The notes under the pieces were generated by a model. The model did no database searches, was not told the origin of the DNA, and saw nothing but the letters and a program-made list of their open reading frames with translations. This document shows, one piece after another, positions 11,792 to 35,120 of a stretch of DNA of 64,000 nucleotides (position 1 is its first letter; every line of letters starts with the position of its first letter). Position numbers and translations under genes: made by a program. Source of the DNA: an uncultured Chloroflexia bacterium (GTDB taxonomy: Bacteria > Chloroflexota > Limnocylindria > Limnocylindrales > CSP1-4); the NCBI GenBank assembly GCA_963768655.1, contig CAVYIM010000009.1, forward strand, positions 96,001 through 160,000, written 5' to 3'.

Positions 11792-12148
11792 ATGACCGGC
11801 ATCTGGTACGTGCTTGGCTTGGCTGCCGCGGGGGTCGGTTTCGTATTCCTCGTCATCGGCCTGGCCTGGGTCCTTTCGCACCGCAACCGCGGTGATCGTC
11901 ACAAGGGCCTGCCGTACGAGAGCGGCATCGACACGGTCGGCGACACCTGGTCCCAATTCGGCGTTTCCTTCTACATCTACGCTCTGCTCTTCGTGGCCTT
12001 CGACGTAGAGGTCGTGTTCCTCTTCCTGTGGGCGATCGTCTTCCGAAGTCTGCTGCTGGGCGGCCTCGTGAGCATGGGCACGTTCGTGGTCGTGCTCATG
12101 CTGGGATTGGCTTACGCCTGGCGGAAGGGAGTCCTGACGTGGCGGTAG
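11792..12148 (+). CDS. nuoA: NADH-quinone oxidoreductase subunit A
   Basis: PYESG, FYIYALLFVAFDVE, YAWRKGVLTW. Confidence 0.96.
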   Translation: MTGIWYVLGLAAAGVGFVFLVIGLAWVLSHRNRGDRHKGLPYESGIDTVGDTWSQFGVSFYIYALLFVAFDVEVVFLFLWAIVFRSLLLGGLVSMGTFVVVLMLGLAYAWRKGVLTWR

Positions 12149-12981
12149 GCGATCGAGGGCCGAAGGGAGCCAGGGCGGCGGCCTCCGGCCGGCCGGCCGG
12201 AGGCGCGGCAGCGCCACGGGTTCCGGCGGCGCCCGGGGCTTCGGCCGCGACGGGGGCTTCGGCCGCGACGGGGGCTTCGGCGGTCGGGGCCGCGGCGAAC
12301 GCGCCGGCGAAGAGCCAGCTCGCGCCCCTCGCTCCGGGCGAGCTGACCGCGCCCATCGTGGTTCGCAACACTCTCTGGCGGGCGGTCAACCCGCTGGCGT
12401 ACGACGGCGGGCGTCCGGCCGAGGCTACTCACCTGCGCGAGTTCGGTCTGACCGATGCCGGTCGGCGCGACGACGCGCGCTGGGGTGCGCTGCAGATCGT
12501 GCCGACCAAAGCGGACTACATCCTCGACCTCATCCGAGCCAACAGCCTGTGGCCGCTCCTTTCGGGCCTGGCTTGCTGCGCCTTCGAGATGATGTCGGGC
12601 GCCACCAGCAAGTTCGACATGGACCGCTGGGGCATGTTCCCGTTCCGGGCCTCGCCCCGCCAGTCGGACGTGCTCATCGTCGCCGGCACGCTCACGACAA
12701 AGATGTCCGGGCCGTTGGTCCGGTTGTGGGAGCAGATGCCGGAGCCCAAGTGGTGCGTTGCCCTCGGTGACTGCACCGTCTCGGGCGGCCGCTACAAGAG
12801 AAGCTACTCGACGGTCCAGGGCATCGACCGGGTCATGCCCGTGGATGTGTACATCCCCGGCTGCCCACCTCGTCCCGAAGGCCTCATTTACGGCATGCTC
12901 CAGCTCGGGCAGCTCGTCAAGGATCAGCGCGGGCACTGGCCCGAGCGCGAGATCGGCCCCACCGTACCGGACAAGATCTGA
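12139..12981 (+). CDS. nuoB: NADH-quinone oxidoreductase subunit B with Ala-rich N-extension (start uncertain)
   Basis: LACCAFEM, ASPRQSD, QMPEPKWCVALGDC, VDVYIPGCPPRPE. Confidence 0.95.
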   Translation: MAVGDRGPKGARAAASGRPAGGAAAPRVPAAPGASAATGASAATGASAVGAAANAPAKSQLAPLAPGELTAPIVVRNTLWRAVNPLAYDGGRPAEATHLREFGLTDAGRRDDARWGALQIVPTKADYILDLIRANSLWPLLSGLACCAFEMMSGATSKFDMDRWGMFPFRASPRQSDVLIVAGTLTTKMSGPLVRLWEQMPEPKWCVALGDCTVSGGRYKRSYSTVQGIDRVMPVDVYIPGCPPRPEGLIYGMLQLGQLVKDQRGHWPEREIGPTVPDKI

Positions 12982-12984
12982 CCG

Positions 12985-13542
12985 ATGGATCGCACCCTGA
13001 AGCGCCGGCTGGAAGCGCGCCTGAGCGCGCAGATCCAGGGCCCGATTCGCCAGCGCCACGACCAGACCGAGATTCGAATCGAGGCGGGCGACGTTCCGGA
13101 CGTGCTCCGCACGCTGCACGACTCCGTCGATTTCCGCTTCGAGATCCTGGCGGACCTGGCCGGCGTCGACACGGGCCGCGGGATGCAGGTCGTGTATCAC
13201 CTCTGGAGCGAAACCAGCCCGGACTGGCTGCGCATCATCGTCGACGGAATCTCCCGCGAGGACCCGCGCTGCCCGTCGGTCACGTTCCTGTGGACCGGCG
13301 CCGAGTGGCTCGAGCGCGAGGCCTACGACATGTTCGGCATCGTGTTCGAGGGCAACCGCGACCTGCGCCGCATCTTCATGCCGCCCGACTACACGAGCTT
13401 CCCGCTCCGCAAGGATTTCCTCCTGCCCGACGACGCGGCCCGATCCCCGGGCGAGGGTGTCCGGCACATGGAGCGAACCTACGCCCCGGCCGTCCTGGCC
13501 GACGATCCGGCGGCCGGCGTCCGCCGGGCGCCGGCGAGTTGA
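12985..13542 (+). CDS. nuoC: NADH-quinone oxidoreductase subunit C
   Basis: AEWLEREAYDMFGIVFEG..DLRRI..PLRKDF. Confidence 0.95.
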   Translation: MDRTLKRRLEARLSAQIQGPIRQRHDQTEIRIEAGDVPDVLRTLHDSVDFRFEILADLAGVDTGRGMQVVYHLWSETSPDWLRIIVDGISREDPRCPSVTFLWTGAEWLEREAYDMFGIVFEGNRDLRRIFMPPDYTSFPLRKDFLLPDDAARSPGEGVRHMERTYAPAVLADDPAAGVRRAPAS

Positions 13543-13550
13543 GGACCGAG

Positions 13551-14831
13551 ATGCCGCCTCGCCCCACCCGCCCGACGCCCCGCAAGACCCCCCGCCCGGA
13601 GGATCAGCGCCCGCCCGAGCAGCACCGCTCCGAGGACGACCCGCGCATCATGCTCGACCGCGAGATCAGCGCGGACCTGTACGAGCCGATCCCGCCCTAT
13701 CCAACTCGGACAGAGCGCGAGGCCGAGTTCTACACCCGCGGCGACGGGGAGATGTTCATCAACATCGGGCCGCACCACCCGGCCACTCACGGCGTCCTCC
13801 GTCTCGTGCTGAAGCTATCGGGCGAGCAGATAGTCGACGTCGACCCGGTCCTCGGCTATCTCCACCGCGGCGTCGAGAAGATCTGCGAGAACTCGGACTA
13901 CTACCACGTCATCGATCAGGTGGACCCGCTGGAGTACGTCAGCTCCCTGTTCCAGGAGTGGGCCGCGGTCCTCTCGTTCGAGAAGCTGATGGACGTGCAG
14001 GTGCCGCGACGGGCTGAGTACATCCGAGTCCTCTCCGGCGAGTTGCTGCGCGTAGCCAGCCACACCCTCTTCATGGGCTTCCTGGCCCTGGATCTGGGCG
14101 GTCTGACGCCGATCCTGTACAGCTTCATCGAGCGCGACGAGATCGTGGAGATGCTGGCGGCTCTCACCGGCGCGCGGATGCTCTTCAACTACTTCCGCAT
14201 CGGCGGCGTGAACGGCGACCTCAACCACGAATTCATGAGCCGCCTGGGCGACTGGATGAGCCGCGCCGCGAGGCAGACCGAAGCGAATTCCGGGCTGCTG
14301 AACGAGAACGAGATTTTCGTCCGGCGGACGCGCGGCGTCGGCGTCCTGGACCGGGCTACGGCCCTCCGCTTCGGGGTCACGGGCGGGAACCTGCGCGCTG
14401 CCGGCGTACCGTTCGACGTCCGCCGTGCCCACCCGTACAGCGTCTACCCGGAGCTCGACTTCAATATCCCGACTCGCCTGGAGGGCGACTCGCTGGCTCG
14501 CTACCTGATCCGCGTGGACGAGGTTCGCGAGTCGATCAGGATCATCGACCAGTGCCTGCACAACATGCCCGACGGGCCGGTCATGGCGAAGCTGCCACGG
14601 CTGCTCCGGCCCCGGCCCGGACGTGCCTGGGGCGCGTGCGAGGGCCCTCGCGGGATGCTCGGCGTGTACACGATCAGCGACGGCTCGGACCAGCCGTTCC
14701 GCTTCCAAATCCACGATCCGAGCTTCATGAATCTGGAGACGGTGCCCACGCTGCTGCCCGGCAACCTGCTGGCCGACACGATGACCATCGTCGCCTCGCT
14801 CGACCCGGTCCTGGGTGGGATCGACAAGTGA
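13551..14831 (+). CDS. nuoD: NADH-quinone oxidoreductase subunit D
   Basis: NIGPHHPATHGVLRL, GYLHRGVEK, EGPRG, SLDPVLGGIDK; no NiFe CxxC motifs. Confidence 0.96.
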   Translation: MPPRPTRPTPRKTPRPEDQRPPEQHRSEDDPRIMLDREISADLYEPIPPYPTRTEREAEFYTRGDGEMFINIGPHHPATHGVLRLVLKLSGEQIVDVDPVLGYLHRGVEKICENSDYYHVIDQVDPLEYVSSLFQEWAAVLSFEKLMDVQVPRRAEYIRVLSGELLRVASHTLFMGFLALDLGGLTPILYSFIERDEIVEMLAALTGARMLFNYFRIGGVNGDLNHEFMSRLGDWMSRAARQTEANSGLLNENEIFVRRTRGVGVLDRATALRFGVTGGNLRAAGVPFDVRRAHPYSVYPELDFNIPTRLEGDSLARYLIRVDEVRESIRIIDQCLHNMPDGPVMAKLPRLLRPRPGRAWGACEGPRGMLGVYTISDGSDQPFRFQIHDPSFMNLETVPTLLPGNLLADTMTIVASLDPVLGGIDK

Positions 14832-14841
14832 GGGCCGTTCG

Positions 14842-16203
14842 ATGACCTTCGCCGCTCGGACCTGGGGCCGAATGTCCCTGACCGCCCGCCTGGCCGCGAT
14901 CCTCGTGCCGCTGGCCGTGCTGCTGGCCATAGCCACCGTCGTGGGCATCGTGTTCATCCTGCCGCCCACGATCGATTTCCTGGGGGCGAACCTGCCGCTG
15001 GTTCGGTTCGTCGTCGCGGTCGTCGGCATCCTCGTCCTGACCATCCCGACTGCGTTCGTGCTGATCTACATGGAGCTCAAAGTCATCGCCCGCATGAACC
15101 TGCGAGTCGGCCCCAACAGGATCGGACCGTGGGGCGCGGCAATGAGCCTTCTCCACGGTTTCAAGGTTCTCTCCAAGGAGGACTTCGCCCCCACCGGCGC
15201 CGATATCGCGGTCTTCACGCTGGCCCCGGTGGTCACCTTCCTGGCCAGCGTCATGACCCTGCTCGTCATCCCGTTCGCGCCCGGCATCTTCGGCCAGGAC
15301 CTCAACATCGGCGTGCTCTATTTCTTCGCCATGGGCGGTCTCGCCGTCCTTGGTCTGCTCATGGCGGGCTGGGCGAGCTTCAACAAGTACTCGCTGCTGG
15401 GCGGGCTCCGCTCAGCGGCGCAGATCGTCAGCTACGAGATTCCGCTGACCATCTCCGTCGTGGGCGTGGTCCTGCTCGCGGGCACGATGAGCATGAACCA
15501 CATCGTTCTGTCCCAGTCGGGCTCCGCGCTGGACTGGTTCGCCCTCAAGCAACCCCTCGCGGTGCTGATCTTCTTCATCGCCGCCACGGCCGAGGCCAAC
15601 CGCACCCCGTTCGACATGACCGAGGCCGACTCTGAGATCGTCGCCGGATTTGCCACTGAGTACTCGGGGATGCGCTTCGGCTTCTTCTTCTTCGCCGAGT
15701 ACGTGAACGTCTTCATCATCTCGGCCCTCATGGTGACGCTCTTCTTCGGTGGCTGGACGGCGCCGTTCAACTGGCCCTGGCCGTACAACCTGAACTGGCT
15801 CGACGCCTCGGGCATCGGCATCCTCTGGATCGGGATCGCGCTGGTCGTCCTGTTCGTTGCCACGGACATCCTCGGCGCGGCGATCTGGCTGATCGGGGGC
15901 CGAGAGTGGAGCAGCCCGGCGGCCTTCGGCCTCGGCTTCCTGATCGCAGGCGCCGGCATCACCGCCGCAGTCGGCCTGGCCTGCTTCGTCGCCTTCGGCT
16001 GGGTCCAGGGCATCTTCTGGTTCATGGCCAAGACCTACGTCTTCGTCTTCACCTTCGTCTGGATGCGAGGAACCCTGCCGCGCGTCCGGGTGGATCAGCT
16101 GATGGGCTTCGCCTGGAAATGGCTCCTGCCCGCCTCGCTCCTGAACCTGTTCGTGACGGCGGCCGCAATCATCATCCTCAACCAACCGGTGACCCCGCGA
16201 TGA
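14842..16203 (+). CDS. nuoH: NADH-quinone oxidoreductase subunit H (elongated)
   Basis: RVGPNRIGPWG, NKYSLLGGLRSAAQIVSYE, EANRTPFD..EADSEIVAGF.TEYSG, RGTLPRVRVDQLM. Confidence 0.95.
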   Translation: MTFAARTWGRMSLTARLAAILVPLAVLLAIATVVGIVFILPPTIDFLGANLPLVRFVVAVVGILVLTIPTAFVLIYMELKVIARMNLRVGPNRIGPWGAAMSLLHGFKVLSKEDFAPTGADIAVFTLAPVVTFLASVMTLLVIPFAPGIFGQDLNIGVLYFFAMGGLAVLGLLMAGWASFNKYSLLGGLRSAAQIVSYEIPLTISVVGVVLLAGTMSMNHIVLSQSGSALDWFALKQPLAVLIFFIAATAEANRTPFDMTEADSEIVAGFATEYSGMRFGFFFFAEYVNVFIISALMVTLFFGGWTAPFNWPWPYNLNWLDASGIGILWIGIALVVLFVATDILGAAIWLIGGREWSSPAAFGLGFLIAGAGITAAVGLACFVAFGWVQGIFWFMAKTYVFVFTFVWMRGTLPRVRVDQLMGFAWKWLLPASLLNLFVTAAAIIILNQPVTPR

Positions 16204-17015
16204 GCTTCATCCCCGGCCTCGGCATCGCGAAGGGAATGGCGCTGACGCTGCGCCGCTTCTTCGCCCCCAAGGCCACGATCCAGTACCCCGAGACGAAGCC
16301 GGACATCGCCGTCCGCTTCCGCGGCCGGCTGCAGCTCCTGTACGATGAGTTCGGCAACCTCAAGTGCGAGACGTGCTTCCAGTGCGCCCAGGCCTGCCCG
16401 GTGGAATGCATCGACATGGGCGGCCACGACACCAAGGGCCGCTTCTACACCCACTGGGGACCGGCAGAGACTTACGGCGAGCGGCGCGAGGAGTCCGCGC
16501 TGCGGCGCTCCGGCCGGCCGGTTCCGGACGAGGCATTTGTCCATTTCGAGCCGATCGATCTGGTCGCGGTCGAGGAGATACTCGCGGCCCGCGACTACGA
16601 CCCGCGCAACATGCTGCCCATCCTCGAAGAGGTCCAGGCCGCGTACGGCTACCTGCCGATCGCCGCGATCAAGCACATCAGCCACGTAACCGGCGCCGCC
16701 TACGCCCTGGTGTATGGAACGGCGACCTACTACAGCCACCTGAGCTTCGAGCGACGGGCCCGAACGGTCGCGGTCTGCCGCTGCACGAGCTGCCTGCTCG
16801 CCGGGTCGGGACGGATCGCGAACGCGATCGGCGAGGGGCTGGGGACGAAGCTCGGCGGCCGGCCGGCCGGCGGCGTGGCGCTCGAGCAGCTGGCGGCCCA
16901 TATCCCCGGCGCGGCGTCGCCGCTCGTCACGCTGGATGGCGAGCCCCAGGCGGACGTGACCGAGACGAGCGCCGCCGCGTGGAGCCTTGCCCTGGCCGGG
17001 AAGACCGTGGCATGA
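16200..17015 (+). CDS. Fusion of NuoI N-terminal half (one CxxCxxCxxxCP motif) and NuoE-like domain
   Basis: NuoI-like GMALTLRRFF..TIQYPE..RFRGR..CETCFQCAQACP, then NuoE-like MLPILEEVQAAYGYLP..VYGTATYY..VCRCTSC. Confidence 0.85.
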   Translation: MSFIPGLGIAKGMALTLRRFFAPKATIQYPETKPDIAVRFRGRLQLLYDEFGNLKCETCFQCAQACPVECIDMGGHDTKGRFYTHWGPAETYGERREESALRRSGRPVPDEAFVHFEPIDLVAVEEILAARDYDPRNMLPILEEVQAAYGYLPIAAIKHISHVTGAAYALVYGTATYYSHLSFERRARTVAVCRCTSCLLAGSGRIANAIGEGLGTKLGGRPAGGVALEQLAAHIPGAASPLVTLDGEPQADVTETSAAAWSLALAGKTVA

Positions 17016-18409
17016 CGACCGTGAACGTGCTTCCGACGCCGGACAAGTGGCCCCACCTGTTGCTGCCCGCGGCCTCGGGGAGTGGCGCGGCCGGTGGCAG
17101 TGGCGCGGCCGGTGGCAGTGGCGCGAATGGCGCCCCGAGCGCCGCCCCCACTGATCTCGACGCAGCCGTTGCCGCCGGTGCCTTCAAGGGTCTGACCGAG
17201 GCTATCAAGGACCTGACCGCCGGCGAGATCGTGGCGGCGCTGGCCAATTCCGGGCTGCGCGGCCGTGGCGGGGCCGGGTTCCCCACGAGCGAGAAGTGGC
17301 GTTCCTGCGCCCTCGCGCCGGCCGACCGCCGCTACGTCGTCGTCCACGCCTACCAGTCGGATCCCGCCGTCTTCGCCGATCGTGTCCTCCTGGAGCGCAA
17401 CCCCTACGCGGTGCTCGAGGGAGCGGCCATCGCCGCCGTCGCCGTGGGAGCCTCCGACGTAATCGTCGCGCTCCACGCGGACGCCACAGAGGCGATCGCC
17501 ACGCTGGAGACCTCGATCCGCGAAGCCGAGATCGCGGGCTATCTGGGTGACGATGTCCTGGGCAGCGGTCGCGACATCCACGTCGAGGTCAAGCCACTTC
17601 AGGGCGCCTACATGCTGGGTGAGGAGACGGTCCTTCTCAAGGGCATCGAGGGCCGGCGCGGCCAGCCCGAGCAGGAGCCTCCGTATCCCACAACCAGAGG
17701 CCTGTACGGCAAGCCCACTCTCGTCCACAACGCCCAGACCTTCGCCGTGGTCCCTGGGATCATCACCGGTGGCCCCGGCACCTACCCCGAGGCCGGACTC
17801 AAAGGCGGCGCCGGCACGGTGCTGGTCCAGATCTCAGGCTCGGTCGTCAATCCGGGCCTCGCCGAGGTCCCGCTCGGCACGACGATCGCCGACATCGTGG
17901 CCCTGGCCGGCGGCGTCCCCGCGCCCCACACGGTCAAGGCGTTCCTCGTCGGCGGCCCATCCGGCGGCATCCTCCCGGCCGGGGCAGGCAAGACCCCCTA
18001 CGAGTTCGAAGCCCTCGAAGCCGCCGGCGCCTGGATGGGCTCAGGGTCGATCGTCGTCGTCGACGAGCGCAGCTGTCTCGTCGACCTCGCCTCGGTGCTG
18101 ACCCGCTTCTGCGCCGACCAGGCCTGCGGCAAGACGATCCCCTGCCGGATCGGGCTGCGCCGCATGGCCGAGATCGGGACGCGCTTCTGCGAGGGTCAGC
18201 CCCGCGGCGACGAGGTCGAGCGCCTGAACGATCTGTCCGCAGACATCGTGGCCAGCCGCCTGTGCGACCACGAACGCCGCTCAACGCTGCCTCTTCTGAG
18301 CCTCGTCCGGTACTTCCGCGACGAGCTCGACGCTCACATCGTCCGTAGCACGTGCCCCGCCGGGATCTGCCAGCCGATGGCAGCCTCTCGGGCCGGGGCC
18401 GTCTCCTGA
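17012..18409 (+). CDS. nuoF: NuoF-like flavoprotein subunit with divergent motifs
   Basis: SGLRGRGGAGFPT.EKW, GAYMLGEETVLL..EGRRGQP, SLBB ISGSV..PG, GGPSGG, CGKTIPCRIG, C-terminal CPAGIC. Confidence 0.85.
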   Translation: MTTVNVLPTPDKWPHLLLPAASGSGAAGGSGAAGGSGANGAPSAAPTDLDAAVAAGAFKGLTEAIKDLTAGEIVAALANSGLRGRGGAGFPTSEKWRSCALAPADRRYVVVHAYQSDPAVFADRVLLERNPYAVLEGAAIAAVAVGASDVIVALHADATEAIATLETSIREAEIAGYLGDDVLGSGRDIHVEVKPLQGAYMLGEETVLLKGIEGRRGQPEQEPPYPTTRGLYGKPTLVHNAQTFAVVPGIITGGPGTYPEAGLKGGAGTVLVQISGSVVNPGLAEVPLGTTIADIVALAGGVPAPHTVKAFLVGGPSGGILPAGAGKTPYEFEALEAAGAWMGSGSIVVVDERSCLVDLASVLTRFCADQACGKTIPCRIGLRRMAEIGTRFCEGQPRGDEVERLNDLSADIVASRLCDHERRSTLPLLSLVRYFRDELDAHIVRSTCPAGICQPMAASRAGAVS

Positions 18410-18417
18410 GGCGTCCC

Positions 18418-21198
18418 ATGCGAGACACCCATCTCCGCCCCAGCCCGAGCGCCCCGCCGGCGACACCGCCGGCCGGCAAACCCGCCCTGCCCGCCCCGCC
18501 CGCGATGCCCGCCAGCAGGCTCCCGGCGAATCCGCCGATAGTCGCGCCGGGACCCCTGCCGGCCCTGCCTGCCGCCCCGTCCGTGAAGGGCCTGCGGCCC
18601 GCCGCCAACGAGGGACCGGTGTGGAATCGCAGGGCCGGACGCCCCGACAGCCGCCCGGACGCAATGGCGCCGCGCGACACGGTTACGCCACTCGACGACT
18701 CGCCTGCCGAGCGTCTGCTCACGACCCAGGCTCCGCAGCGGCCGCTGTCGACGTCCACAATCAAGCTCACGATCGACGACCGCGAGGTCACCGGGACCGA
18801 GGGGCAAACGATCCTCGAGGTCTGCCGGGCCAACGGCACCGACGTCCCCACGCTCTGCTACGAGCCCAAGCTGCCCGGCTTCGGCGCCTGCCGGATGTGC
18901 GTCGTCGAGGTCGACGGCGACGATCATCCGACGATCTCGTGCGCCCGCGAAGCGGCGGCCGGCATGGTCGTCCGAACCCAGACCGACGAGGTTCGCCGGC
19001 TGCGCCGGACCAACCTGGAGCTGATCTTCAGCGACCACAACGCCTATTGCCTGCCGCCCTGCCAGAACAAGTGCCCGAGCCACATCGACATCCCGGGCTT
19101 CCTGAAGGCCAATGCCGAGGGCAAGTTCCGCGAGTCGGCGCGCATCTTCAAGCGCACCATCCCGTTCCCTTCGATCCTGGGCCGCGTCTGCCCGGCTCCG
19201 TGCGAGGAGCACTGCCGCCGCGACGAGGTGGACGAGGCCATCGCCATCCGGGATAGCCATCGCTACGCCGGCGACATCGTGCTGGCCGCGCAGAAGGACG
19301 GCATCGAACCGCCTCTGCCGTTCGAGACACAGCCCCGGACCGGCAAGCGCGTCGCGATCGTCGGCTCCGGACCGGCCGGCATGGCGGCGGCCTACTACCT
19401 GCAGCTCTCCGGCCACGACACGACCGTCTTCGAGCGCGACCCCGAGCCCGGTGGAATGCTCCGCTACGGCATCCCGGAGTACCGCCTGCCCAAGAAGGAC
19501 GTTCTCGAGCCCGAGTACGAGGCGGTCTGGCGCCTCGGCGCGAAGCTGGAGGTCAACCAGGCCCTGGGTCGCGACTTCAGCCTGGACGACCTGCGCGCGC
19601 GGGGCTTCGACGCCACGATCGTCGCCACCGGCTGCTACGACACCAACAAGCTCGGCGTCGAGAACGAGAACGCAGTCGGGGTCATCGACGGCCTGGAGTA
19701 CCTCAAGATCGCCACTCTGGGCCTGCCGTATCCGGGCCACGCCGGCAGCCGCGTCGTCGTCATCGGCGGCGGCTTCACCGCCATGGACTGCATGCGCACC
19801 TCCGTCCGCCAGGGCGCGAAGGAGGTCACCCTCGTCTACCGCCGTGACATGAAAGACATGCCGGCCGCCAGCGAGGTCCACGAGGGGCTCGAGGAAGGGG
19901 CTCGAGCCATCTTCCAGGCCGGCCCGACGAGGGTCATCGTCAACGCCAAGAATCGCGTCACCGGCGTCGAGTTCATCCGCATGCGCCCCGGCGCGCCGGA
20001 CGCCTCCGGCCGCCGCCGCCCCGAGCCCGCGCCCGGGACCGAGTTCGTGATCAAGTGCGACCGCGTCCTGCTCGCCATCGGCCAGGGGCCCGATTTGTCG
20101 TGGATAGGGCCCGGCAACGAAGGCATCGAGGCGGCCCGGTACAGGCTCAAGGCCGACGCGGTCACGTTCGAGACGGGCCGGCCCGGCGTGTTCGGCACCG
20201 GCGACGTGCGCATCGGGGCCGCGACCGTGGTCCAGGCCATCGCCGAGGGACGGCGCTGCGCCTACGCCGTGGACGCGTTCTTGCGCGGCACGGACCTCTC
20301 CGAGCTGCGCTCACGCGAGACCCTCGCCGAGCCCGAGCTCAAGTTCCTCTCGATCACGCCCTACACCGACGAGCCCAAGGAACCCCGTCACCGTCTGGCG
20401 GCAATGCCGGCGGAGGAGCGCAACAAGAGCTACGTCGAGTACGAGATCCCCTATACCCAGACCGAGGTCATGGCCGAGTCGAGCCGCTGCCTGCAGTGCA
20501 CCTGCGAGGCCATCGGCTACTGCGACCTGCGCAACCTGGGCCTGGAGTACGGGACCACGCTCGAAACGCTGGAGCCTCGGCACAACGAAGGCGCCGGCTA
20601 TCGCAGCGTGACGGAGAACCGCTTCACCGGCGCCAACCACGACTACATCCGCGACGACAGCCACGCCTTCATCCTGCGCGAGCCGTCGCGCTGCATCGAC
20701 TGCGGCCGCTGCGCCGCGGTCTGCGCCGACGTCGTCGGCGCCGCCTGCTACGACTTCATGCGCATCGGCTTCGACACGCTCGTGACGACGCCGCTCGACA
20801 TGAGCCTCAACGACACGCCGTGCGTCTCCTGCGGTCGCTGCGCCGAGACGTGCCCTACCGGCGCGCTCATGCTCAAGCCGCGCGTCTTGGAGAAGTACGA
20901 CGTCGACGAGAGCCGCTGCATCCTGTGCGGCATCTGCGTGGATGCCTGCCCGTACGACGCGCTGCGCGGCGGGCCCGACAACGAGCTGGCCCACACCGAC
21001 CGGTCCGGGCCGATGATCGACCTGATCGGCCTGGCCGCCATGGCCGGCGAAACCGAAGTGACCTACATCCAGCGCGAACGAGACTGGCTCGCCCACGCCG
21101 TGGCCGACGGTCGACTCGCGAACCCCGGGGCGGAGCTGCCGGCGCTGCCGCCCGCGCTCGCCACTCCCGGCGACGGAAATGGAGCCGAGCGCCAGTGA
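18418..21198 (+). CDS. Multidomain oxidoreductase: NuoG-type Fe-S domains with inserted GltD/NfnB-like FAD/NAD(P)H domain and C-terminal NuoI-like half
   Basis: PTLCY..GACRMCVV..SC (2Fe-2S); PPCQNKCP/CPAPCEEHC; GSGPAG; GGMLRYGIPEYRLP; GGGFTAMD..YRR; RCLQCTC..YCDL; CIDCGRCAAVC; CVSCGRCAETCP; KYDVDESRCILCGICVDACPYDAL. Confidence 0.88.
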   Translation: MRDTHLRPSPSAPPATPPAGKPALPAPPAMPASRLPANPPIVAPGPLPALPAAPSVKGLRPAANEGPVWNRRAGRPDSRPDAMAPRDTVTPLDDSPAERLLTTQAPQRPLSTSTIKLTIDDREVTGTEGQTILEVCRANGTDVPTLCYEPKLPGFGACRMCVVEVDGDDHPTISCAREAAAGMVVRTQTDEVRRLRRTNLELIFSDHNAYCLPPCQNKCPSHIDIPGFLKANAEGKFRESARIFKRTIPFPSILGRVCPAPCEEHCRRDEVDEAIAIRDSHRYAGDIVLAAQKDGIEPPLPFETQPRTGKRVAIVGSGPAGMAAAYYLQLSGHDTTVFERDPEPGGMLRYGIPEYRLPKKDVLEPEYEAVWRLGAKLEVNQALGRDFSLDDLRARGFDATIVATGCYDTNKLGVENENAVGVIDGLEYLKIATLGLPYPGHAGSRVVVIGGGFTAMDCMRTSVRQGAKEVTLVYRRDMKDMPAASEVHEGLEEGARAIFQAGPTRVIVNAKNRVTGVEFIRMRPGAPDASGRRRPEPAPGTEFVIKCDRVLLAIGQGPDLSWIGPGNEGIEAARYRLKADAVTFETGRPGVFGTGDVRIGAATVVQAIAEGRRCAYAVDAFLRGTDLSELRSRETLAEPELKFLSITPYTDEPKEPRHRLAAMPAEERNKSYVEYEIPYTQTEVMAESSRCLQCTCEAIGYCDLRNLGLEYGTTLETLEPRHNEGAGYRSVTENRFTGANHDYIRDDSHAFILREPSRCIDCGRCAAVCADVVGAACYDFMRIGFDTLVTTPLDMSLNDTPCVSCGRCAETCPTGALMLKPRVLEKYDVDESRCILCGICVDACPYDALRGGPDNELAHTDRSGPMIDLIGLAAMAGETEVTYIQRERDWLAHAVADGRLANPGAELPALPPALATPGDGNGAERQ

Positions 21199-21223: not shown

Positions 21224-21772
21224 ATGCCGATAGGTCAGACTCTCCCGTTCACGGCGGTCCGCTGGGACGACGTCCTCTTCGTCGTGCTGGCGATCATGCT
21301 CCTCGGCTCGGCCCTGCTGGTCGTGACCATGCGCGACATCATTCGCTGCGGTCTGGCGATGATCGCCTCGTTCGCCTCGCTGGCCGGCATCTACGTCCTG
21401 CTGGGCAATCCCCTCATCGCGGCCACCCAGGTCCTGGTCTACATCGGCGCGATCAGCATCCTGGTCCTGTTCGCGATCATGCTGACCGAGACCAAGAACG
21501 CCCCCACCCGGCTGGTCTTCCAGACCCAGGCCTGGGTCGGAGCCGCCGCCGCGGTGGTGATCGGCGCCATCATCTCCGGCACGGTCCTGACGACCACGTG
21601 GCCGTCCGGCGGTGCCGTGGTCTGGACCGCCACGTCGGACATCGCCACGATGCTCTTCGGCCAGTACGTTCTGCCGTTCGAGGCCGTGAGCGTGTTGCTC
21701 ACCGCCGCCGTCGTGGGTGGCGTGCTGCTGGCCAGACGCGAGCCGAACGCCGGCAAGGAGGATCGGTCGTGA
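21224..21772 (+). CDS. nuoJ: NADH-quinone oxidoreductase subunit J
   Basis: QVLVYIGAISILVLFAIML, YVLPFEAVSVLL. Confidence 0.95.
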   Translation: MPIGQTLPFTAVRWDDVLFVVLAIMLLGSALLVVTMRDIIRCGLAMIASFASLAGIYVLLGNPLIAATQVLVYIGAISILVLFAIMLTETKNAPTRLVFQTQAWVGAAAAVVIGAIISGTVLTTTWPSGGAVVWTATSDIATMLFGQYVLPFEAVSVLLTAAVVGGVLLARREPNAGKEDRS

Positions 21773-22080
21773 GCAATTCTCTCGACTCCTACCTGGTCCT
21801 GTCGGGCCTGCTCTTCGCCATCGGCACCTTCGGCTTCCTGGCCCGCCGCAACGCGATCAGCATGCTGATGTCCATCGAGCTGATGCTCAACGCGGTCAAC
21901 CTCACGATCATCGCCTTCGGGGCCTTCGAGAAGGGGCTCCACGTCCAGGCCTCGGTCATAGCCTTGATCGTCATCGCCGTGGCGGCGGCCGAAGCGACGG
22001 TCGGCCTGGCGATCGTCATCGCGATCTACCGGAACAAGAAGACGCCGCTCGTCGACGAGTACGACTCCATGAGCCAGTGA
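21769..22080 (+). CDS. nuoK: NADH-quinone oxidoreductase subunit K
   Basis: RRNAISMLMSIELMLNAVNL, AAAEATVGLAI; GTG overlaps nuoJ stop. Confidence 0.95.
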   Translation: MSNSLDSYLVLSGLLFAIGTFGFLARRNAISMLMSIELMLNAVNLTIIAFGAFEKGLHVQASVIALIVIAVAAAEATVGLAIVIAIYRNKKTPLVDEYDSMSQ

Positions 22081-22087
22081 GCCCACG

Positions 22088-24055
22088 ATGACCGCGCTCC
22101 TCCCGCTCATCCCGATCATGCCGCTCGGCGGATTCGTACTGACCGGCCTGCTCGGCCGCCGCTACCCCGAGGACGCCCACCGCATCGCCGTCTGGGCCGT
22201 CGTGGCGTCGTGGGTCGTGGCCTCGATCGTGGCCGTCATGGCCCTGCTGCATGCCTCTCCGTTCGGGACGGCGGGCGCCGGCATCACGCTCTGGACCTGG
22301 ATCCCGGCCTACGTCCCGGGCGGCTTCAACGCCAGCATGGGTCTCTTCGTCGACCCCCTGACCGCCTGCCTGCTCATCGTGGTCACGACGATCGGCATGC
22401 TGGTGCACATCTACTCGATCGGCTACATGGCCCATGACCCTGGTCGGTGGCGCTTCTTCGCCTACCTGAACCTGTTCATGTTCTCGATGCTGATGCTGGT
22501 CCTGGCCGACAACTTCCTGCTCGTCTTCGCCGGCTGGGAGCTGGTGGGCCTGTGCAGCTACCTCTTGATCGGCTTCTGGTACCCGCGCCGGTCCGCCGCC
22601 GTTGCGGCCAAGAAGGCCTTCCTGGTCAACCGCGTCGGCGACATGGGCTTCGCGCTGGGGATCATGGCCATCTGGACCCAGCTCGGCACGCTCAACATGC
22701 AGGCCGTCTTCGCCAGGTTCGGCAGCGTCCCCCACGACTGGCAGATCGCGATCGCGCTGCTCATCTTCTGCGGCGCCGTGGGCAAGAGCGCCCAGTTCCC
22801 GCTCCACGTCTGGCTGCCGGACGCGATGGAGGGCCCCACTCCGGTCTCGGCCCTGATCCATGCCGCGACGATGGTCAACGCCGGCGTCTACCTCGTCGCC
22901 CGCTGCAACCCGATCTTCGGCGCAGCCCCCGAGGTCATGGTCGTCGTCGCCGCGATCGGCATCTTCACCGCTATCCTGGCCGCCTCGATCGCCTTCACCC
23001 AGACCGACATCAAGCGCGTCCTGGCCTACTCGACGCTTTCCCAGCTCGGCTACATGTTCGCCTCCCTGGGCGTCGGGGCGTGGACTGCGGCGATCTTCCA
23101 CCTCATGAGCCACGGCTTCTTCAAGGGCCTCCTCTTCCTGGACTCGGGCTCCGTGATCCACTCCGTCGGCGGCGAGCAGGACATGCGCAAGATGGGCGGC
23201 CTGGCCCGCAAGATCCCGATCACCTACGCCACGATGCTCGTCGGCGCGGTGGCGATCTCCGGCGTTCCGCCCCTGGCCGGCTTCTTCTCGAAGGACGAGA
23301 TCCTGGGCGGGGCATTCAAGAGCGGCTTCCTGTGGGTCTGGGCCATCGGCTTCGTGGTCGCCGGCATGACCGCCTTCTACATGTTCCGGCTGATGGGCAT
23401 GACTTTCTGGGGCCCGAGCCACGTCGATCCCGAGGTCGAGCACCACGTCCACGAGTCGCCCCGGTCGATGACCGGGCCGCTCGTCGTGCTCGCCATTCCG
23501 GCCGCGCTGCTCGGCCTGGCGATCGGCTTCCCGCCGGAGACGGGCCTGCTCCACCAGTGGCTCGCGCCGGTCTTCGAGGGCACGATCGCCGCCAGCGGCC
23601 ACACGGAGGCCGCCTACAACTTCTTCGGCATCGACGGCGCGCTGGCGATCGGGACGACGGCCCTGGTCGCCGTGGCGATCGTGCTGGCGTGGCGGCTCTT
23701 CGGCGTCGAGATCCCGGCCCTGGGCCTGCGGGCCCAGCCCCGTCCCGAGCGCGTGCGCGAGATCAGCACCCGGCGCGGCCTGTCGCTCCTCTACAAAGGC
23801 TCGTTCAACAAGTGGTGGTTCGACGACCTCAACAACAAGCTCTTCGTGGAGTGGGGCGGCAAACTCGCCGCCGCCGCCTTCTGGTTCGACCGCACGATCG
23901 TCGACGGCACCGTCAACGGCATCGGCGCCGTCACCACCGCCGCCGGTCGGGGACTGCGCCGCGTCCAGACGGGCCGGGTCCAGAACTACGCGCTCGGCAT
24001 CGCCCTCGGCCTGATCGTCATGGCCGCCGGCTATCTATACCTCGCGGTCAGGTAG
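22088..24055 (+). CDS. nuoL: NADH-quinone oxidoreductase subunit L
   Basis: GKSAQFPLHVWLPDAMEGPTPVSALIHAATMV, HGFFKG, QTGRVQNY. Confidence 0.97.
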   Translation: MTALLPLIPIMPLGGFVLTGLLGRRYPEDAHRIAVWAVVASWVVASIVAVMALLHASPFGTAGAGITLWTWIPAYVPGGFNASMGLFVDPLTACLLIVVTTIGMLVHIYSIGYMAHDPGRWRFFAYLNLFMFSMLMLVLADNFLLVFAGWELVGLCSYLLIGFWYPRRSAAVAAKKAFLVNRVGDMGFALGIMAIWTQLGTLNMQAVFARFGSVPHDWQIAIALLIFCGAVGKSAQFPLHVWLPDAMEGPTPVSALIHAATMVNAGVYLVARCNPIFGAAPEVMVVVAAIGIFTAILAASIAFTQTDIKRVLAYSTLSQLGYMFASLGVGAWTAAIFHLMSHGFFKGLLFLDSGSVIHSVGGEQDMRKMGGLARKIPITYATMLVGAVAISGVPPLAGFFSKDEILGGAFKSGFLWVWAIGFVVAGMTAFYMFRLMGMTFWGPSHVDPEVEHHVHESPRSMTGPLVVLAIPAALLGLAIGFPPETGLLHQWLAPVFEGTIAASGHTEAAYNFFGIDGALAIGTTALVAVAIVLAWRLFGVEIPALGLRAQPRPERVREISTRRGLSLLYKGSFNKWWFDDLNNKLFVEWGGKLAAAAFWFDRTIVDGTVNGIGAVTTAAGRGLRRVQTGRVQNYALGIALGLIVMAAGYLYLAVR

Positions 24056-24065: not shown

Positions 24066-25589
24066 ATGTCCGGCCTGCCGCTCCTGAGCCTGATCACCTT
24101 CCTGCCGCTCCTTGGAGCGGTGATCATCGCGGTCCTGCCCTCGCGGAACCTCGATCTCATCCGACGCGTGGCCCTCGGGACGTCGCTGCTGGCCTGGGTC
24201 CTGTCGCTGCTCCTGCTCGGCATCTTCGTCCGAGGCCAAGACGGCTTCCAGTTCAAGGAAGCTGCCGACTGGATCCCGAGCTTCGGCATCCAGTACAAGC
24301 TGGGCGTCGACGGCCTGAGCGTGCTGATGGTCGTCCTGACGACGACGCTCAGCTGGATCAGCATCCTGGCCAGCTTCGGGCCGATCAAGTTCCGGGTGAA
24401 GGAGTACATGATCTCCTTCCTGGTTCTCGAGGTCGGCATGATCGGGGTCTTCGTCGCCCTGGACCTCTTCCTCTTCTACATCTTCTGGGAGATCGTCCTG
24501 GTCCCGATGTACTTGATCATCGGCATCTGGGGCGGCGCGAACCGCATCTACGCCACGATGAAGTTCGTTCTGTACACGCTCGTCGGGTCGCTGCTGATGC
24601 TCGTCGCGATCCTGGCCACGGCCTTCACCTACCAGGCCGCGACCGGGTCCTGGGCCGGCGCATTCGACTACGAGAAGCTGCAGGCGTTCGCCGCCGCGGG
24701 CTCCTTCGGCCAGAACTTCCAGCTGCTGGCCTTCCTGGCGCTGTTCCTCGCCTTCGCCATCAAGGTCCCGATGTTCCCGTTCCACACCTGGCTGCCCGAC
24801 GCCCACACCGAGGCCCCGACCGCGGGCTCGGTCATCCTGGCGGGCGTCCTCCTCAAGCTCGGCGCGTACGGCCTGATCCGCTTCGCCGTGCCTCTCTACC
24901 CGTACGCGGCCCACACGTTCGCCTGGCCGATCATCGTCCTGAGCGTGATCGCGATCGTGTACGGCGCGATCGTCTCGATCGTCCAGCCGGACCTCAAGCG
25001 CCTGATCGCCTACAGCTCGGTCAGCCACATGGGCTTCGTGACGCTGGGCATCTTCGTCTTCACGGCCACCGCCCTCCAGGGCGCGATCCTGCAGATGATC
25101 AACCACGGCCTGATCACGGGCGGGCTCTTCCTCCTGGTCGGTGTCGTCTACGAGCGCACCCACGACCGATCCATCGCCAAGATGGGCGGCCTGGCGGCCA
25201 CGATGCCGCTGTGGTCGACGGTCTTCGGCTTCTTCATCCTGGCCTCGGCCGGGCTGCCGGGGCTGTCCGGCTTCGTCGGTGAGTTCCTGGTCTTCGTGGG
25301 GTCCTTCACCTACGCGCCCGGAATCGTCGTCGCCTCGATCATCGTCATGGTCCTGGTGGCCACGTACTTGCTGTGGATGTTCCAGCGCGTCGCCTTCGGC
25401 GCCGTGTCCGATTTCCTGGCCGGCCTGGGCGACCATCTGACGGACATGAGCCGGGTCGAGTTCGCCACTCTCGCCCCGCTGGCCGCCCTGATCGTCGTGT
25501 TCGGGCTCTTCCCGAGCCTGATCCTCGACTTCCTGAACGGTCCGGTCCAGCACTTCCTCCTGGCCGCTGGCACAGCGGTCGGCGGCTGA
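24066..25589 (+). CDS. nuoM: NADH-quinone oxidoreductase subunit M
   Basis: AIKVPMFPFHTWLPDAHTEAPT, KRLIAYSSVSHMG, GLPGLSGFVGE. Confidence 0.97.
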   Translation: MSGLPLLSLITFLPLLGAVIIAVLPSRNLDLIRRVALGTSLLAWVLSLLLLGIFVRGQDGFQFKEAADWIPSFGIQYKLGVDGLSVLMVVLTTTLSWISILASFGPIKFRVKEYMISFLVLEVGMIGVFVALDLFLFYIFWEIVLVPMYLIIGIWGGANRIYATMKFVLYTLVGSLLMLVAILATAFTYQAATGSWAGAFDYEKLQAFAAAGSFGQNFQLLAFLALFLAFAIKVPMFPFHTWLPDAHTEAPTAGSVILAGVLLKLGAYGLIRFAVPLYPYAAHTFAWPIIVLSVIAIVYGAIVSIVQPDLKRLIAYSSVSHMGFVTLGIFVFTATALQGAILQMINHGLITGGLFLLVGVVYERTHDRSIAKMGGLAATMPLWSTVFGFFILASAGLPGLSGFVGEFLVFVGSFTYAPGIVVASIIVMVLVATYLLWMFQRVAFGAVSDFLAGLGDHLTDMSRVEFATLAPLAALIVVFGLFPSLILDFLNGPVQHFLLAAGTAVGG

Positions 25590-25601: not shown

Positions 25602-27062
25602 ATGAACTGGTCAGACCTGGGCTCCCTGGCGCCGGTCATCTGGGCCGTCCTCACGGCGGCGGCGGTCCTGCTCGTGGACTTCATCGCGCCCGGGCGGCGC
25701 GGCCCGGCCATCGCCGTGGCGCTCGCCGGGCTGGCCGTGGCGGCGGCCGTGGTCCTGTCGCTCGCCGGCCACACCGAGACCGCCTTCGGGGGCGCGTACG
25801 TCGTGGACGGCCTGACGGCATTCCTCGACATCCTGTTCGTGGCCATCGCGGCCCTGACGATCCTCTTCGCCAACGACTACCTGGAGCCGCGCGGCCTGCC
25901 GATTGCCGAGTTCGCTGCCGTCCTGGTCTTCGCCATCACCGGGGCGATGCTGATCGCCGGCTCCGCCGACCTGCTCCTCCTCTTCGTTGCCCTGGAGCTG
26001 ATGGTCCTGCCCGGCTACCTGCTCGCCGGCTACGCTCGGAACGACCCCTACTCGACCGAGGGCGCGATCAAATACTTCCTCCTCGGCTCCTTCTCGAGCG
26101 CGATCCTGCTCTTCGGCCTGGCCTACGTGTGGGGCATCACGGGCAGCACACGAGTGGACGTCGTGGCCGCGGCCCTGGCCCAGGCTGCGGCGACCGGCTC
26201 GATCGCCCCCGGCCTGGCCATGGGTCTGGCCTTCATGACGGCGGGCGTGGCCTTCAAGATGGCCGCGGTGCCGTTCCACTACTGGACTCCGGACGCGTAT
26301 CAAGGCTCGCCGACGCCCGTCACGGCGTACCTGTCCGTCGGTCCGAAGATAGGCGCCTTCGCCATCGCCCTGCGGCTGTTCGTGGCCGCCCTGGGCCCGC
26401 TCAAGGCCGACTGGCTGCCGATCGTGATCATCCTGGCTGCCCTGACGATGACGCTGGGCAACCTGGTGGCGATCACCCAGGACAACGTCAAGCGGATGCT
26501 GGCGTACTCCTCGATCGCCCATACCGGCTACATCCTGGTCGGGCTGGCGGCCTACGCCGGCGGCCAGCACAGCGGCATCTCGGCGATCCTCTTCTACGGC
26601 GCCGCCTACACCTTCATGAACATGGGCGCGTTCGCCGTGGTCACGGCCCTGCAGCGCCGGCCAGGAGTGACGAGCCAGATCTCCACGTTCGCCGGCCTGG
26701 GGCGGCGCGATCCGTGGCTGGGGGCGCTGATGGCCCTGTTCCTGCTGTCGCTGACGGGCATCCCGCCGCTCGCCGGCTTCTGGGCCAAGGCCTACGTAAT
26801 CGTCGCGGCGGTCCAGGCCGGCGGCTGGCTGACGGCGCTGGCGGTGCTGGCGATGCTCAACGCGGCCGCGGCGGCGTTCTACTACCTGCGCGTGGTCGTG
26901 TACATGTACATGCGCGAGCCCGCCGAGGATGCCGCGCCGCTGTCGCCGGGGCTGCTCTTCCGAGTCGGTCTGGCCGTGACCGGCATCGCCACGCTCGTCT
27001 TCGGGCTCTTCCCGGCGATCCTGACCGCCGCCAGCAGCGCCGCCGACGTGCTGAAGGGCTAG
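25602..27062 (+). CDS. nuoN: NADH-quinone oxidoreductase subunit N
   Basis: FKMAAVPFHYWTPDAYQGSPTP, KRMLAYSSIAHTG, GIPPLAGFWAK. Confidence 0.97.
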   Translation: MNWSDLGSLAPVIWAVLTAAAVLLVDFIAPGRRGPAIAVALAGLAVAAAVVLSLAGHTETAFGGAYVVDGLTAFLDILFVAIAALTILFANDYLEPRGLPIAEFAAVLVFAITGAMLIAGSADLLLLFVALELMVLPGYLLAGYARNDPYSTEGAIKYFLLGSFSSAILLFGLAYVWGITGSTRVDVVAAALAQAAATGSIAPGLAMGLAFMTAGVAFKMAAVPFHYWTPDAYQGSPTPVTAYLSVGPKIGAFAIALRLFVAALGPLKADWLPIVIILAALTMTLGNLVAITQDNVKRMLAYSSIAHTGYILVGLAAYAGGQHSGISAILFYGAAYTFMNMGAFAVVTALQRRPGVTSQISTFAGLGRRDPWLGALMALFLLSLTGIPPLAGFWAKAYVIVAAVQAGGWLTALAVLAMLNAAAAAFYYLRVVVYMYMREPAEDAAPLSPGLLFRVGLAVTGIATLVFGLFPAILTAASSAADVLKG

Positions 27063-27066: not shown

Positions 27067-27546
27067 CTAGCCCTGGCTCGGGCTCGAAGCCGGCGCCGCG
27101 GCCGAGGGCGAATCCGAAGCCGGCGCCGCGGCCGAGGACGCCCCCGAGGACGAAGCCGAGCCGCCTTCTGCCTTCTCCGCCGCCTCGTCCGCCAGAGCGT
27201 GGGCCACCGTGTCGAGCGAGAGCAGGGCGCACTTGAGGCGAGCCGGGCTGATTTCGATCCCGATCAGGTCCAGCAGGTCGTCGGGCGTCATGGCCTCGAC
27301 TTCTTCGACGGTCTTGCCCTTGATCTCGTCGGTCAGCAGCGAGGCACTGGCCTGGCTGATGGCGCAGCCACGGCCGGTGAAGGCCACGTCGCGCACGATC
27401 CCGTCCGAGATTCCGAGGAACATCGTGATCCGGTCGCCGCAGAGCGGGTTGGAGCCTTCATAGCTCGCCGTGGGTGTCTCGAGGACGCCGAAGTTGTGGG
27501 GATGCCGGTAGTGTTCGAGGATGTAGTCGCGGTACAGGTCGTCCAT
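27067..27546 (-). CDS. sufU: SufU/IscU-type Fe-S scaffold/sulfur transfer protein
   Basis: LYRDYILEHYRHPHN, NPLCGD, GCAISQASAS, RLKCALL. Confidence 0.92.
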   Translation of the reverse strand: MDDLYRDYILEHYRHPHNFGVLETPTASYEGSNPLCGDRITMFLGISDGIVRDVAFTGRGCAISQASASLLTDEIKGKTVEEVEAMTPDDLLDLIGIEISPARLKCALLSLDTVAHALADEAAEKAEGGSASSSGASSAAAPASDSPSAAAPASSPSQG

Positions 27547-27564
27547 CGGAGTCGAGGATAGGCC

Positions 27565-28842: not shown

Positions 28843-28856
28843 TCGATCGCCCCGCC

Positions 28857-30229: not shown

Positions 30230-30280
30230 CTTGATGCTCCCGGGCGACGCTCGGCCGGGCCGGCGGGACTCGCAGGCTAA

Positions 30281-30310
30281 TTCCGACCTAAACCGTCGGA
30301 AATGAGTATA
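30281..30310 (-). promoter_or_regulatory. Putative Rrf2 operator TTCCGAC-N7-GTCGGAA just downstream of -10 TATACT
   Basis: Perfect 7-bp inverted repeat 30281-30301; AGTATA 30305-30310 reads TATACT on minus strand. Confidence 0.7.
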
Positions 30311-30537
30311 GGAGCGCGGCCGCGGAGCGTCAACGACGGGCGGGGAGTGCCGGCGACTGTGAACGGGACGGCGACGCGAGACGGGACGGCGCAGTGGCCG
30401 GACGGCACAGTGGCCGGACGGGTCCGAGACTCGGCGAGCGGTCGAGACCCAAATGCCCCCAATCAGCCGAGCGGTCTCGGGCCCTATCCTGCAAGCGCAT
30501 GTTCCAGCTTGCAGCAGCCCATTCCGCGGGCTCGCAG

Positions 30538-35099: not shown

Positions 35100-35120
35100 C
35101 CCGAACCCGCACCAATGAGC

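Follow-up and report, generated by a model that had tools for sequence, protein, structure and literature searches.

A complex I operon of Chloroflexota with NuoI split over two genes and a GltD-type module in its head: a candidate NADPH-fed proton pump

Complex I heads accept NADH, ferredoxin, flavodoxin or F420H2. The described systems closest to the locus reported here are StnABC and NfnABC, electron-bifurcating transhydrogenases of the Bfu family (PDB 8OH5, 9BOV and 9N5U; PMC10482914, PMC11829005 and PMC12018979; articles are cited here by PMC number, for the excerpts that bear on each statement). In Stn, StnA contacts StnB, StnB contacts StnC, and StnC holds the NADPH:viologen activity of the enzyme (PMC10482914); electrons in Stn and Nfn follow the path FAD-A7-A6-A3-A2-A1-B1-FMN, with clusters A4 and A5 forming a dead-end branch off A2 (PMC10482914, PMC11829005). 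The four-Cys [2Fe-2S] cluster of BfuC/StnA is needed for bifurcation, which is abolished in Stn that lacks this cluster, NADPH:viologen activity being kept (PMC10482914), and clusters B2–B5 of BfuB are taken as the defining bifurcating core (PMC9304861). A complex I with a BfuABC head (Nuo-Bfu) has been predicted in Geobacter, Deferribacteres, Planctomycetes and Nitrospirae (PMC9304861). Here we describe a nuo operon in a 64,000-nucleotide stretch of DNA from an uncultured Chloroflexia bacterium (the window: positions 96,001 to 160,000 of contig CAVYIM010000009.1, assembly GCA_963768655.1; class Limnocylindria in GTDB), which has the order nuoA-B-C-D-H, three head genes, nuoJ-K-L-M-N. The head genes encode proteins that resemble NuoE, NuoF and NuoG (P0002, P0003 and P0001, respectively; E, F and G for the subunits in general), and NuoI is divided between the first and the last of them (Table 1).

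The NuoI family TIGR01971 (121 positions) matches the operon in complementary, non-overlapping parts, one at the start of P0002 and one near the end of P0001, and there is no free-standing nuoI in the operon. Each piece carries one CxxCxxCxxxCP motif, the two genes lie 4.4 kb apart, and no single chain holds both motifs. When aligned pairwise with five intact NuoI proteins, the N-terminal piece fell on the N-terminal half in 5/5 and the P0001 tail on the C-terminal half in 4/5; against the remaining one, the tail aligned best with the first motif. By alignment, the NuoI half of P0001 starts at the place of the A5 motif in 9BOV_A, and the gap from the A4 motif to the NuoI motif is 21 residues, a spacing as in the polyferredoxin FwdF. 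Polyferredoxins ranked higher by summed score, but NuoI was the best non-repetitive family and its match continues beyond the motif, so that a generic ferredoxin was rejected as the identity of the tail. Since each cluster of a 2x[4Fe-4S] ferredoxin is held by three Cys of one motif and one of the other, both NuoI clusters would require both chains. One ferredoxin motif was found in 110/110 NuoI N-half ORFs, and tblastn of the window's genome (88.6% complete) found neither a second nuo core (nuoA-D, H, J-N) nor a further NuoI half. A predicted complex of the two halves (P0001 residues 746–885 with P0002 residues 1–105, each with its own alignment and without ligands) scored 0.11 against a mark of 0.32, controls were not folded, and the prediction is not used as evidence.

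The original prediction for P0001, made from the letters and open reading frames of the window, described a GltD-like module that interrupts the NuoG His-cluster motif and is followed by no molybdopterin fold or H-cluster, in a complex I that would be NADPH-fed or Stn-like. Its architecture was borne out. All the named motifs are present in the ORF, namely FSDH (residues 204–207), PPCQNKCP (213–220), CPAPCEEHC (258–266), GSGPAG (316–321), GGGFTAMD (450–457), YRR (474–476) and RCLQCTCEAIGYCDL (690–704), and Pfam agrees on their order, with Fer4_20 at 211–289, Pyr_redox_2 at 311–611 and NADH-G_4Fe-4S_3 covering only the first 17 of its 40 positions (residues 196–212, below cut-off). Pfam, NCBIfam and PDB searches concur on the domain order, which is preceded by a Pro/Ala-rich leader that is not conserved (residues 1–112). 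No molybdopterin or H-cluster family was among the 25 Pfam families listed for P0001; databases name proteins of this type formate dehydrogenase or glutamate synthase, and the absence of a molybdopterin fold and of an H-cluster rules out a formate dehydrogenase or [FeFe]-hydrogenase subunit. The anticipated likeness to StnC and NfnA was also upheld, the best solved relatives being NfnA of Caldicellulosiruptor (9BOV_A, 542 bits), NfnA of Thermococcus (9N5U_A, 485 bits) and StnC of Sporomusa (8OH5_C, 466 bits). A fold search with the AlphaFold model of P0001 again placed these three chains at the top, and at E<1e-20 there are 12 solved relatives, which are chains of Nfn/Stn, of GltD and of dihydropyrimidine dehydrogenase; all solved close relatives of P0001 are NADPH enzymes. 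Among 114 G proteins that passed a coverage filter, the cluster Cys, H207, GGG, YRR and R356 (the equivalent of StnC R239) are invariant, and C215 is kept in 113. With GxGxxA, YRR and the R239 equivalent in place, NADPH is the predicted substrate at the P0001 FAD. The prediction had further tied this subunit to the proton-pumping core and had missed the split NuoI; the genetic link stands, and it is stronger than was argued, because P0001 carries half of NuoI. That the head belongs to complex I is, in our judgement, very probable.

Table 1 Features of the nuo operon in the window (positions in the window)
Feature	Position	Strand	Basis and remarks
nuoA	11792..12148	+	Pfam Oxidored_q4
nuoB (N2 subunit)	12028..12981	+	Coordinates count from the first GTG, the real start being probably further in; intact tandem-Cys motif
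nuoC	12985..13542	+	Family matches
nuoD	13290..14831	+	Coordinates count from the first GTG, the real start being probably further in; has the His loop of the quinone site and lacks a CxxC NiFe motif
nuoH	14815..16203	+	Family matches
P0002: NuoI N-half (residues ~1–78) and NuoE/StnA/NfnC-like domain (~120–258)	16200..17015	+	TIGR01971 positions 1–66; solved relatives HydC/StnA/NfnC and NuoI
P0003: NuoF/StnB/NfnB-like, core only	17012..18409	+	FMN loop kept, NADH site partly eroded, 3/4 N3/B1 Cys
P0001: NuoG/StnC/NfnA-like, containing the GltD insert and ending in a NuoI half	18418..21198	+	Open ORF, 926 residues
2Fe-2S domain of P0001 (A1/N1b; C147, C158, C161, C175)	18757..18984	+	Pfam Fer2_4 at 114–189; Cys in 114/114
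His-cluster motif, first half, HxxxCxxxCxxxCP, residues 207–220	19036..19077	+	Motif named in an excerpt of PMC7483475
GltD/NfnL-like module, residues 211–625: two 4Fe-4S sites, FAD site, NADPH site (GGGFTA...YRR)	19048..20292	+	Pfam, alignments
His-cluster motif, second half, CxxCxCxxxxxC, residues 691–702	20488..20523	+	Sequence motif
2x[4Fe-4S] ferredoxin domain with two complete motifs, equivalent to A2 and A4	20671..20868	+	Pfam Fer4_Nqo3 at 752–817; 8 Cys in 114/114
C-terminal NuoI half of P0001, residues ~822–863	20881..21006	+	TIGR01971 positions 71–112; PDB NuoI chains; pairwise to intact NuoI
nuoJ	21224..21772	+	Pfam
nuoK	21769..22080	+	Pfam
nuoL	22088..24055	+	Antiporter motifs intact
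nuoM	24066..25589	+	Antiporter motifs intact
nuoN	25602..27062	+	Antiporter motifs intact

A scan for relatives confirmed at least 727, and the best 80 loci (73–93% identical; labelled Limnocylindrales/Limnocylindria or Chloroflexota, plus two stray labels) were taken further. The N-terminal part of NuoG, the GltD module, the C-terminal part of NuoG and the C-terminal half of NuoI form one ORF in 80/80 of them, for which reason an assembly artefact, a frameshift fusion and chance were rejected. The upstream gene was reached in 74 loci, with the NuoI N-half and the E domain in one ORF in 71 and in two ORFs in three. P0002 was matched in 285/301 genomes of a class sample, a count in which seven unpublished genomes figure, and the split layout occurs in all five families of the class (f1–f5, of which f2 has genomes of 1.0–1.4 Mb). 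The one-operon form was seen in 19/19 operon loci of f1, f2 and f4 (one cut by a contig end, one frameshifted). In f3 and f5, a cassette B-D-[I-N/E]-F-[G/GltD/I-C] is accompanied in 5/5 genomes by a second operon C-H-J-K-L-M-N (nuoA detected in 4) that is without B, D and I, and the two complement each other subunit by subunit.

Genome-level searches were confined to Chloroflexota. In a phylum sample of 46 class genomes and 355 genomes from outside the class, the C-terminal junction was matched nearly full-length in 46/46 and 42/355, respectively, the out-of-class carriers belonging to f10 (5/5), f25 (26/28), f29 (9/11), f47 (one) and f20 (one). There, 11/12 loci consist of four genes only, in a cassette of the form nuoB'-[I-N/E]-F-[G/GltD/I-C] that includes no membrane genes, and 1/12 is an A-B-C-D-H operon. 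An intact nuoI was found elsewhere in 5/5 out-of-class carriers tested, and a canonical operon with ordinary NuoF, NuoG and NuoI in the four examined (one cut by the fetched window; f10 not among them), the cassette being an addition to canonical complex I in Ktedonobacteria. Named homologues of the cassette protein are found in cultured Thermogemmatispora, Ktedonobacter, Dictyobacter, Ktedonospora and Tengunoibacter, and in a search of representative sequences, which gives no taxonomy, 44 of the 150 top hits had one motif and a long tail. Stand-alone cassettes of this kind, and the fact that the closest solved relatives are soluble, would suit a soluble NADPH oxidoreductase that serves ferredoxin, flavodoxin or another acceptor and is merely co-transcribed with the nuo core or loosely docked on it. 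We regard this explanation as very improbable, since the cassette always retains the two halves of NuoI together with a copy of nuoB, no further NuoI is found in the window's genome, so that the core would be without N6 clusters, and the two operons of f3 and f5 complement each other. The layout is conserved and real, a variant of complex I that is apparently unpublished.

Further arrangements were seen in single genomes or pairs of genomes. G022 (C21 and C25; L126, L127 and L171) holds a canonical nuoA-N operon, a split-NuoI cassette and a third, A-C-H-J-K-L-M-N operon; the G/GltD/NuoI-C gene is tandemly duplicated in two f25 genomes (L159:6806–11847 and G328:C38); and G086 has a second, lone NuoI-N/E gene with no other nuo genes nearby (L113:7703–8584).

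The head shares with StnABC/NfnABC the gene order (E-, F- and G-like), the insertion of GltD in the His-cluster motif, the FAD/NADPH motifs and the R239 equivalent, as well as both motifs given for the Stn/Nfn subunit in an excerpt of PMC7483475 (HxxxCxxxCxxxCP and CxxCxCxxxxC, here at residues 207–220 and 691–702). By sequence and fold, StnABC/NfnABC rank first among the matches of G and F and second, after HydC, among those of E. In contrast to these enzymes, the FdhF-like domain and cluster A5/C1 are here replaced by the NuoI C-half (the alignment ends at ~700/~1175 of 9BOV_A and 8OH5_C), E is fused to the NuoI N-half, there are no B2–B5 domains and no intact C1 ligands, and the genes stand inside a complex I operon. 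By alignment, the A7 ligands of P0001 are C219, C258, C262 and H281; the last takes the place of StnC Lys170, the ligand of the FAD-proximal cluster (A7/C7) that is called strictly conserved in PMC10482914, and is His in 114/114.

The E- and F-like subunits are reduced. P0003 aligns only to residues ~114–527 of StnB/NfnB and is without the N-terminal thioredoxin and C-terminal 2x[4Fe-4S] domains; the C-terminal ferredoxin motif is found in 0/102 F proteins (72 of the 80 loci, three more from f1, 12 from f4, three from f3 and 12 from outside the class; all three f2 proteins failed the filter and f5 was left out). The E domain of P0002 has no second 2Fe-2S Cys pair, and four Cys are present in 1/110 relatives and not in the other 109. 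Because F lacks both of the domains for B2–B5 and E lacks 2Fe-2S ligands, the head cannot bifurcate as Stn does, and a soluble bifurcating Stn is ruled out by the missing domains (clusters B2–B5 and C1). With these losses, and His in place of Lys170, the 'Stn-like' function originally envisaged is not supported. None of the four defining features tested was found in the head, which, as judged from these features of its sequence, is not a Stn/Nfn-Bfu member; we infer that it works like the NADPH end of StnC, wired to a complex I core. The one relative with all four E-domain Cys (L174:8303–12914) is a divergent form in an A-B-C-D-H operon, its F motif already with Tyr for Asp, and is a candidate early state.

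Relative to canonical 14-subunit complex I (NuoA-N / Nqo1-14), subunits A, B, C, D, H, J, K, L, M and N are intact and NuoI is complete but in two pieces. The differences are that NuoI is split in two fusions, that NuoE, F and G fall below NCBIfam cut-offs and are nearer to Bfu subunits (P0003 reached 343 bits on the NuoF family TIGR01959, cut-off 559), and that there is an extra FAD/NADPH module. Family matches and known motifs, the latter used for checking the core and membrane subunits, indicate that NuoB/C/D form a quinone module in which N2 and the residues of the quinone site are present and NiFe ligands are not, and that the membrane arm is complete (A, H, J, K, L, M and N), with key motifs retained throughout. 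As in Nuo-Bfu, the place of NuoEFG midway along a nuo operon is taken by a trimer of the Bfu type, and menaquinone is the predicted acceptor; Nuo-Bfu, however, keeps the BfuBC bifurcating core and is predicted to confurcate NADH and ferredoxin, whereas a complete BfuBC core was not found here, and the excerpted Nuo-Bfu account mentions neither a GltD domain nor a split nuoI (PMC9304861). Mbx-like operons with a GltD-related protein in the place of NuoI likewise connect an NAD(P)H site of the GltD type with an ion pump resembling complex I, but have an Mrp/Mbx-type membrane arm and a proposed flow from ferredoxin to NAD(P)+, and the excerpt describes no NuoE/F/G module or split NuoI (PMC4758237). 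A homologous GltD-type FAD/NADPH domain is found in SfrAB (the Geobacter NADPH oxidoreductase), NfnB/NfnL and GltD, SfrB being set beside the head by description and not by sequence; in these it belongs to separate subunits of soluble enzymes, and is neither in NuoG nor fused to NuoI. A full-text literature search, judged by titles and the starts of abstracts and with subscription journals outside its coverage, found no description, in Chloroflexota, of nuoI in two pieces or of a complex I head that contains GltD, and, in the literature searched, no full proton pump with an NADPH head built in; novelty could be affected by the enzyme tables of PMC9304861, and the excerpts of PMC5736913 and PMC4453560 are silent on a split-NuoI layout.

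On balance, we lean towards an NADPH-fed, proton-pumping complex I with mainly forward flow, in which a trimmed NfnABC/StnABC-type trimer would lie in frame inside nuoI. The two NuoI halves would refold as one 2x[4Fe-4S] ferredoxin and tie the head to NuoBCD. NADPH would be oxidised at the GltD FAD, and electrons would pass from NADPH to FAD, A7, A6, A3(His), A2, A4, N6a/N6b, N2 and menaquinone, with proton pumping by NuoH-N; the exit from G is probably A4, the dead-end branch of Stn/Nfn, and not the His cluster N5. The E- and F-like subunits would be largely a scaffold joining the NuoI halves, with weak or no NADH oxidation. Because in Stn the A subunit touches B and B touches C, E and F would be required for the N-half, carried by E, to meet the C-half, carried by G, a role that would explain their persistence after cofactor loss. 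With menB and a cytochrome bd oxidase encoded in the genome, menaquinone is the likely acceptor; neither a heme-copper oxidase nor MqnA of the futalosine pathway was found at its 88.6% completeness. Catabolic NADH would reach the pump via the membrane transhydrogenase PntAB, or would be oxidised by NDH-2 where that is present. An f2 genome of 1.2 Mb (G011) shows a different set, with a heme-copper oxidase and no menB, MqnA or cytochrome bd match.

PntB was found in 60/61 class genomes, and the single miss, G022 (91% complete), carries a canonical complex I for NADH as well. Across the phylum sample, PntB was present in 46/46 genomes of the class and in 93/355 from outside it, but in only 4/42 of the out-of-class carriers. 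This pattern fits an NADPH head that needs prior NADH conversion where it is the sole head. The head might instead work mainly in reverse, quinol and the proton motive force reducing NADP+ to supply anabolic NADPH. The Stn/Nfn FAD site can run in both directions (PMC10482914), and in genomes of the Ktedonobacteria type, where the cassette comes on top of a canonical NADH complex I and PntB is rare (f25 1/28, f29 2/11, f10 0/5), it could stand in for PntAB in supplying NADPH. In the window's class, however, most of the genomes checked yielded no complex I besides this one, and other NADPH sources are near-universal, with G6PD, like PntB, in 60/61 class genomes; mainly reverse flow is therefore improbable.

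Several observations weigh against an NADPH-fed pump with a largely structural F. The PntB pattern rests on few related lineages and few independent events, and PntAB is a common anabolic enzyme. An NDH-2 probe matched 29/61 class genomes above cut-off and detected only 3/14 control genomes, and because the probe is insensitive NDH-2 absence cannot be claimed. The Asn of GGGNTA, seen in five aligned solved relatives, is Phe or Tyr in 114/114 G proteins (F453 in P0001, window 19774–19776), and an aromatic residue at this canonical GGGNTA/GGGDTA position could alter the nucleotide site. In glutathione reductase such a residue shields the flavin, and here it may be an adaptation to oxygen. The AlphaFold model of P0001 has a mean pLDDT of 65 and is confident for the 2Fe-2S and GltD domains only; with the Fe-S tail below 50, it gives no distance to the NuoI clusters. 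Finally, F retains the RGRGG loop, K76 (102/102), N92 (101/102), E97 and D186 (both 102/102), GEE with E185 (101/102), K/R202 (91/102) and three N3 Cys (102/102; all four in 15/102), numbered by the Aquifex NADH contacts in an excerpt of PMC9299107 and mapped by motif. Because F keeps so much of the flavin/nucleotide site, NADH input is conceivable.

These residues are the substance of a dual-input alternative, in which NADPH would be oxidised by the FAD of the GltD module and NADH by a working FMN in F (FMN-B1-A1-A2), both feeding A4 and NuoI, and the head could double as a non-bifurcating NADPH-to-NAD+ transhydrogenase. It would be served by the retained PP and an N3 site with at least three Cys, in which the Glu after the last Cys could substitute for the second Cys in the 87/102 F proteins that lack it, and by the invariant A1 (2Fe-2S); F is, moreover, the sole NuoF-family protein in 4/5 genomes tested. 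Of the NADH contacts, D103 is kept in 78/102 and F71 in 44/102 (Tyr in 33 more), but F79 is lost in all (0/102), E95 is found in 8/102 and G394 in 18/102, and beside them D94 is Asp in 0/102 and Tyr in 88, with the Cys of ICGEE in 0/102. In canonical NuoF/HydB of the same genome set, F79, E95, G394, D94 and this Cys are present in 5/5 (F79 4/5; G394 1/5). F also diverges faster than G (42–44% versus ~60% identity in f4), and PntB is universal in the class sample. By these residues, the NADH site of F is eroded, not erased, and dual input seems to us unlikely, though the least unlikely of the alternatives. The window's own F is more eroded than most, with His at residue 112 of P0003 (window 17345–17347) where 101/102 relatives and canonical NuoF have Asn. 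An in-genome control is provided by a HydABC-like [FeFe]-hydrogenase (L081:7209–~11500; G000:C4), whose HydB has canonical FMN/NADH motifs and no C-terminal ferredoxin domain; the enzyme is possibly a non-bifurcating, NADH-linked hydrogenase that would serve as an NADH sink when oxygen is absent.

In the simplest history, nuoI would have received an nfnCBA/stnABC-type operon in frame and the FdhF-like domain would have been lost, in line with the start of the NuoI half at the A5 position of 9BOV_A. In a tree of GltD domains, 41 from the module form one clade (100/99); the tree names no donor, because its outgroups are four in-genome paralogues only, without StnC, NfnA and SfrB. We are more hesitant about a fuller account, a shade doubtful as it stands, by which the complex would be a dedicated NADPH:menaquinone pump, the whole class would respire via NADPH (with NADH entering via PntAB), the Ktedonobacteria head with its own NuoB would be an exchangeable alternative on a shared membrane arm, and the transhydrogenase operon inserted in nuoI would have had its dead-end Fe-S branch turned into the main wire.

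Published potentials are -280 mV for NADH, -370 mV for NADPH and -74 mV for menaquinone. The calculated yield per electron pair to menaquinone is ~0.41 eV from NADH and ~0.59 eV from NADPH, and four protons cost ~0.60 eV at an assumed 150 mV; an NADPH-fed pump would get past the shortage of energy that limits the coupling of NADH to menaquinone. If true, it would change metabolic models for an abundant soil and freshwater Chloroflexota group, give a function to the A4 branch that is called non-functional in Stn/Nfn structures, and show that NuoI tolerates splitting between two chains. The homologues in cultured Ktedonobacteria make the design testable, and an NADPH-burning proton pump would be of use for cofactor balancing in engineered cells.

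A promoter/terminator scan gave no signal exceeding that of shuffled sequences, and sequencing runs held only small shares (<=0.16 of words). In three RNA libraries, contigs of relatives cover 27–30/30 bins, and single contigs span the I-N/E and G/I-C junctions; DNA carry-over is uncontrolled, and these data are not used as evidence of expression or habitat. Beyond the operon, a subtilisin-like protease gene (S8, by eye; 31945–35236, +) appears to be broken up into many short overlapping frames, which would reflect assembly errors or a pseudogene. Immediately 5' of nuoA lies a SAM-dependent methyltransferase gene (PF02636; 9782–11164, +), which we take to be of the MidA/NDUFAF7 family of complex I assembly factors. 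On the other side, genes for an Rrf2 regulator, a SufC-like ABC ATPase, a SufS-like desulfurase and SufU (27067–30541, -) converge on the nuoN end, so that Fe-S assembly genes adjoin those for a very cluster-rich complex.

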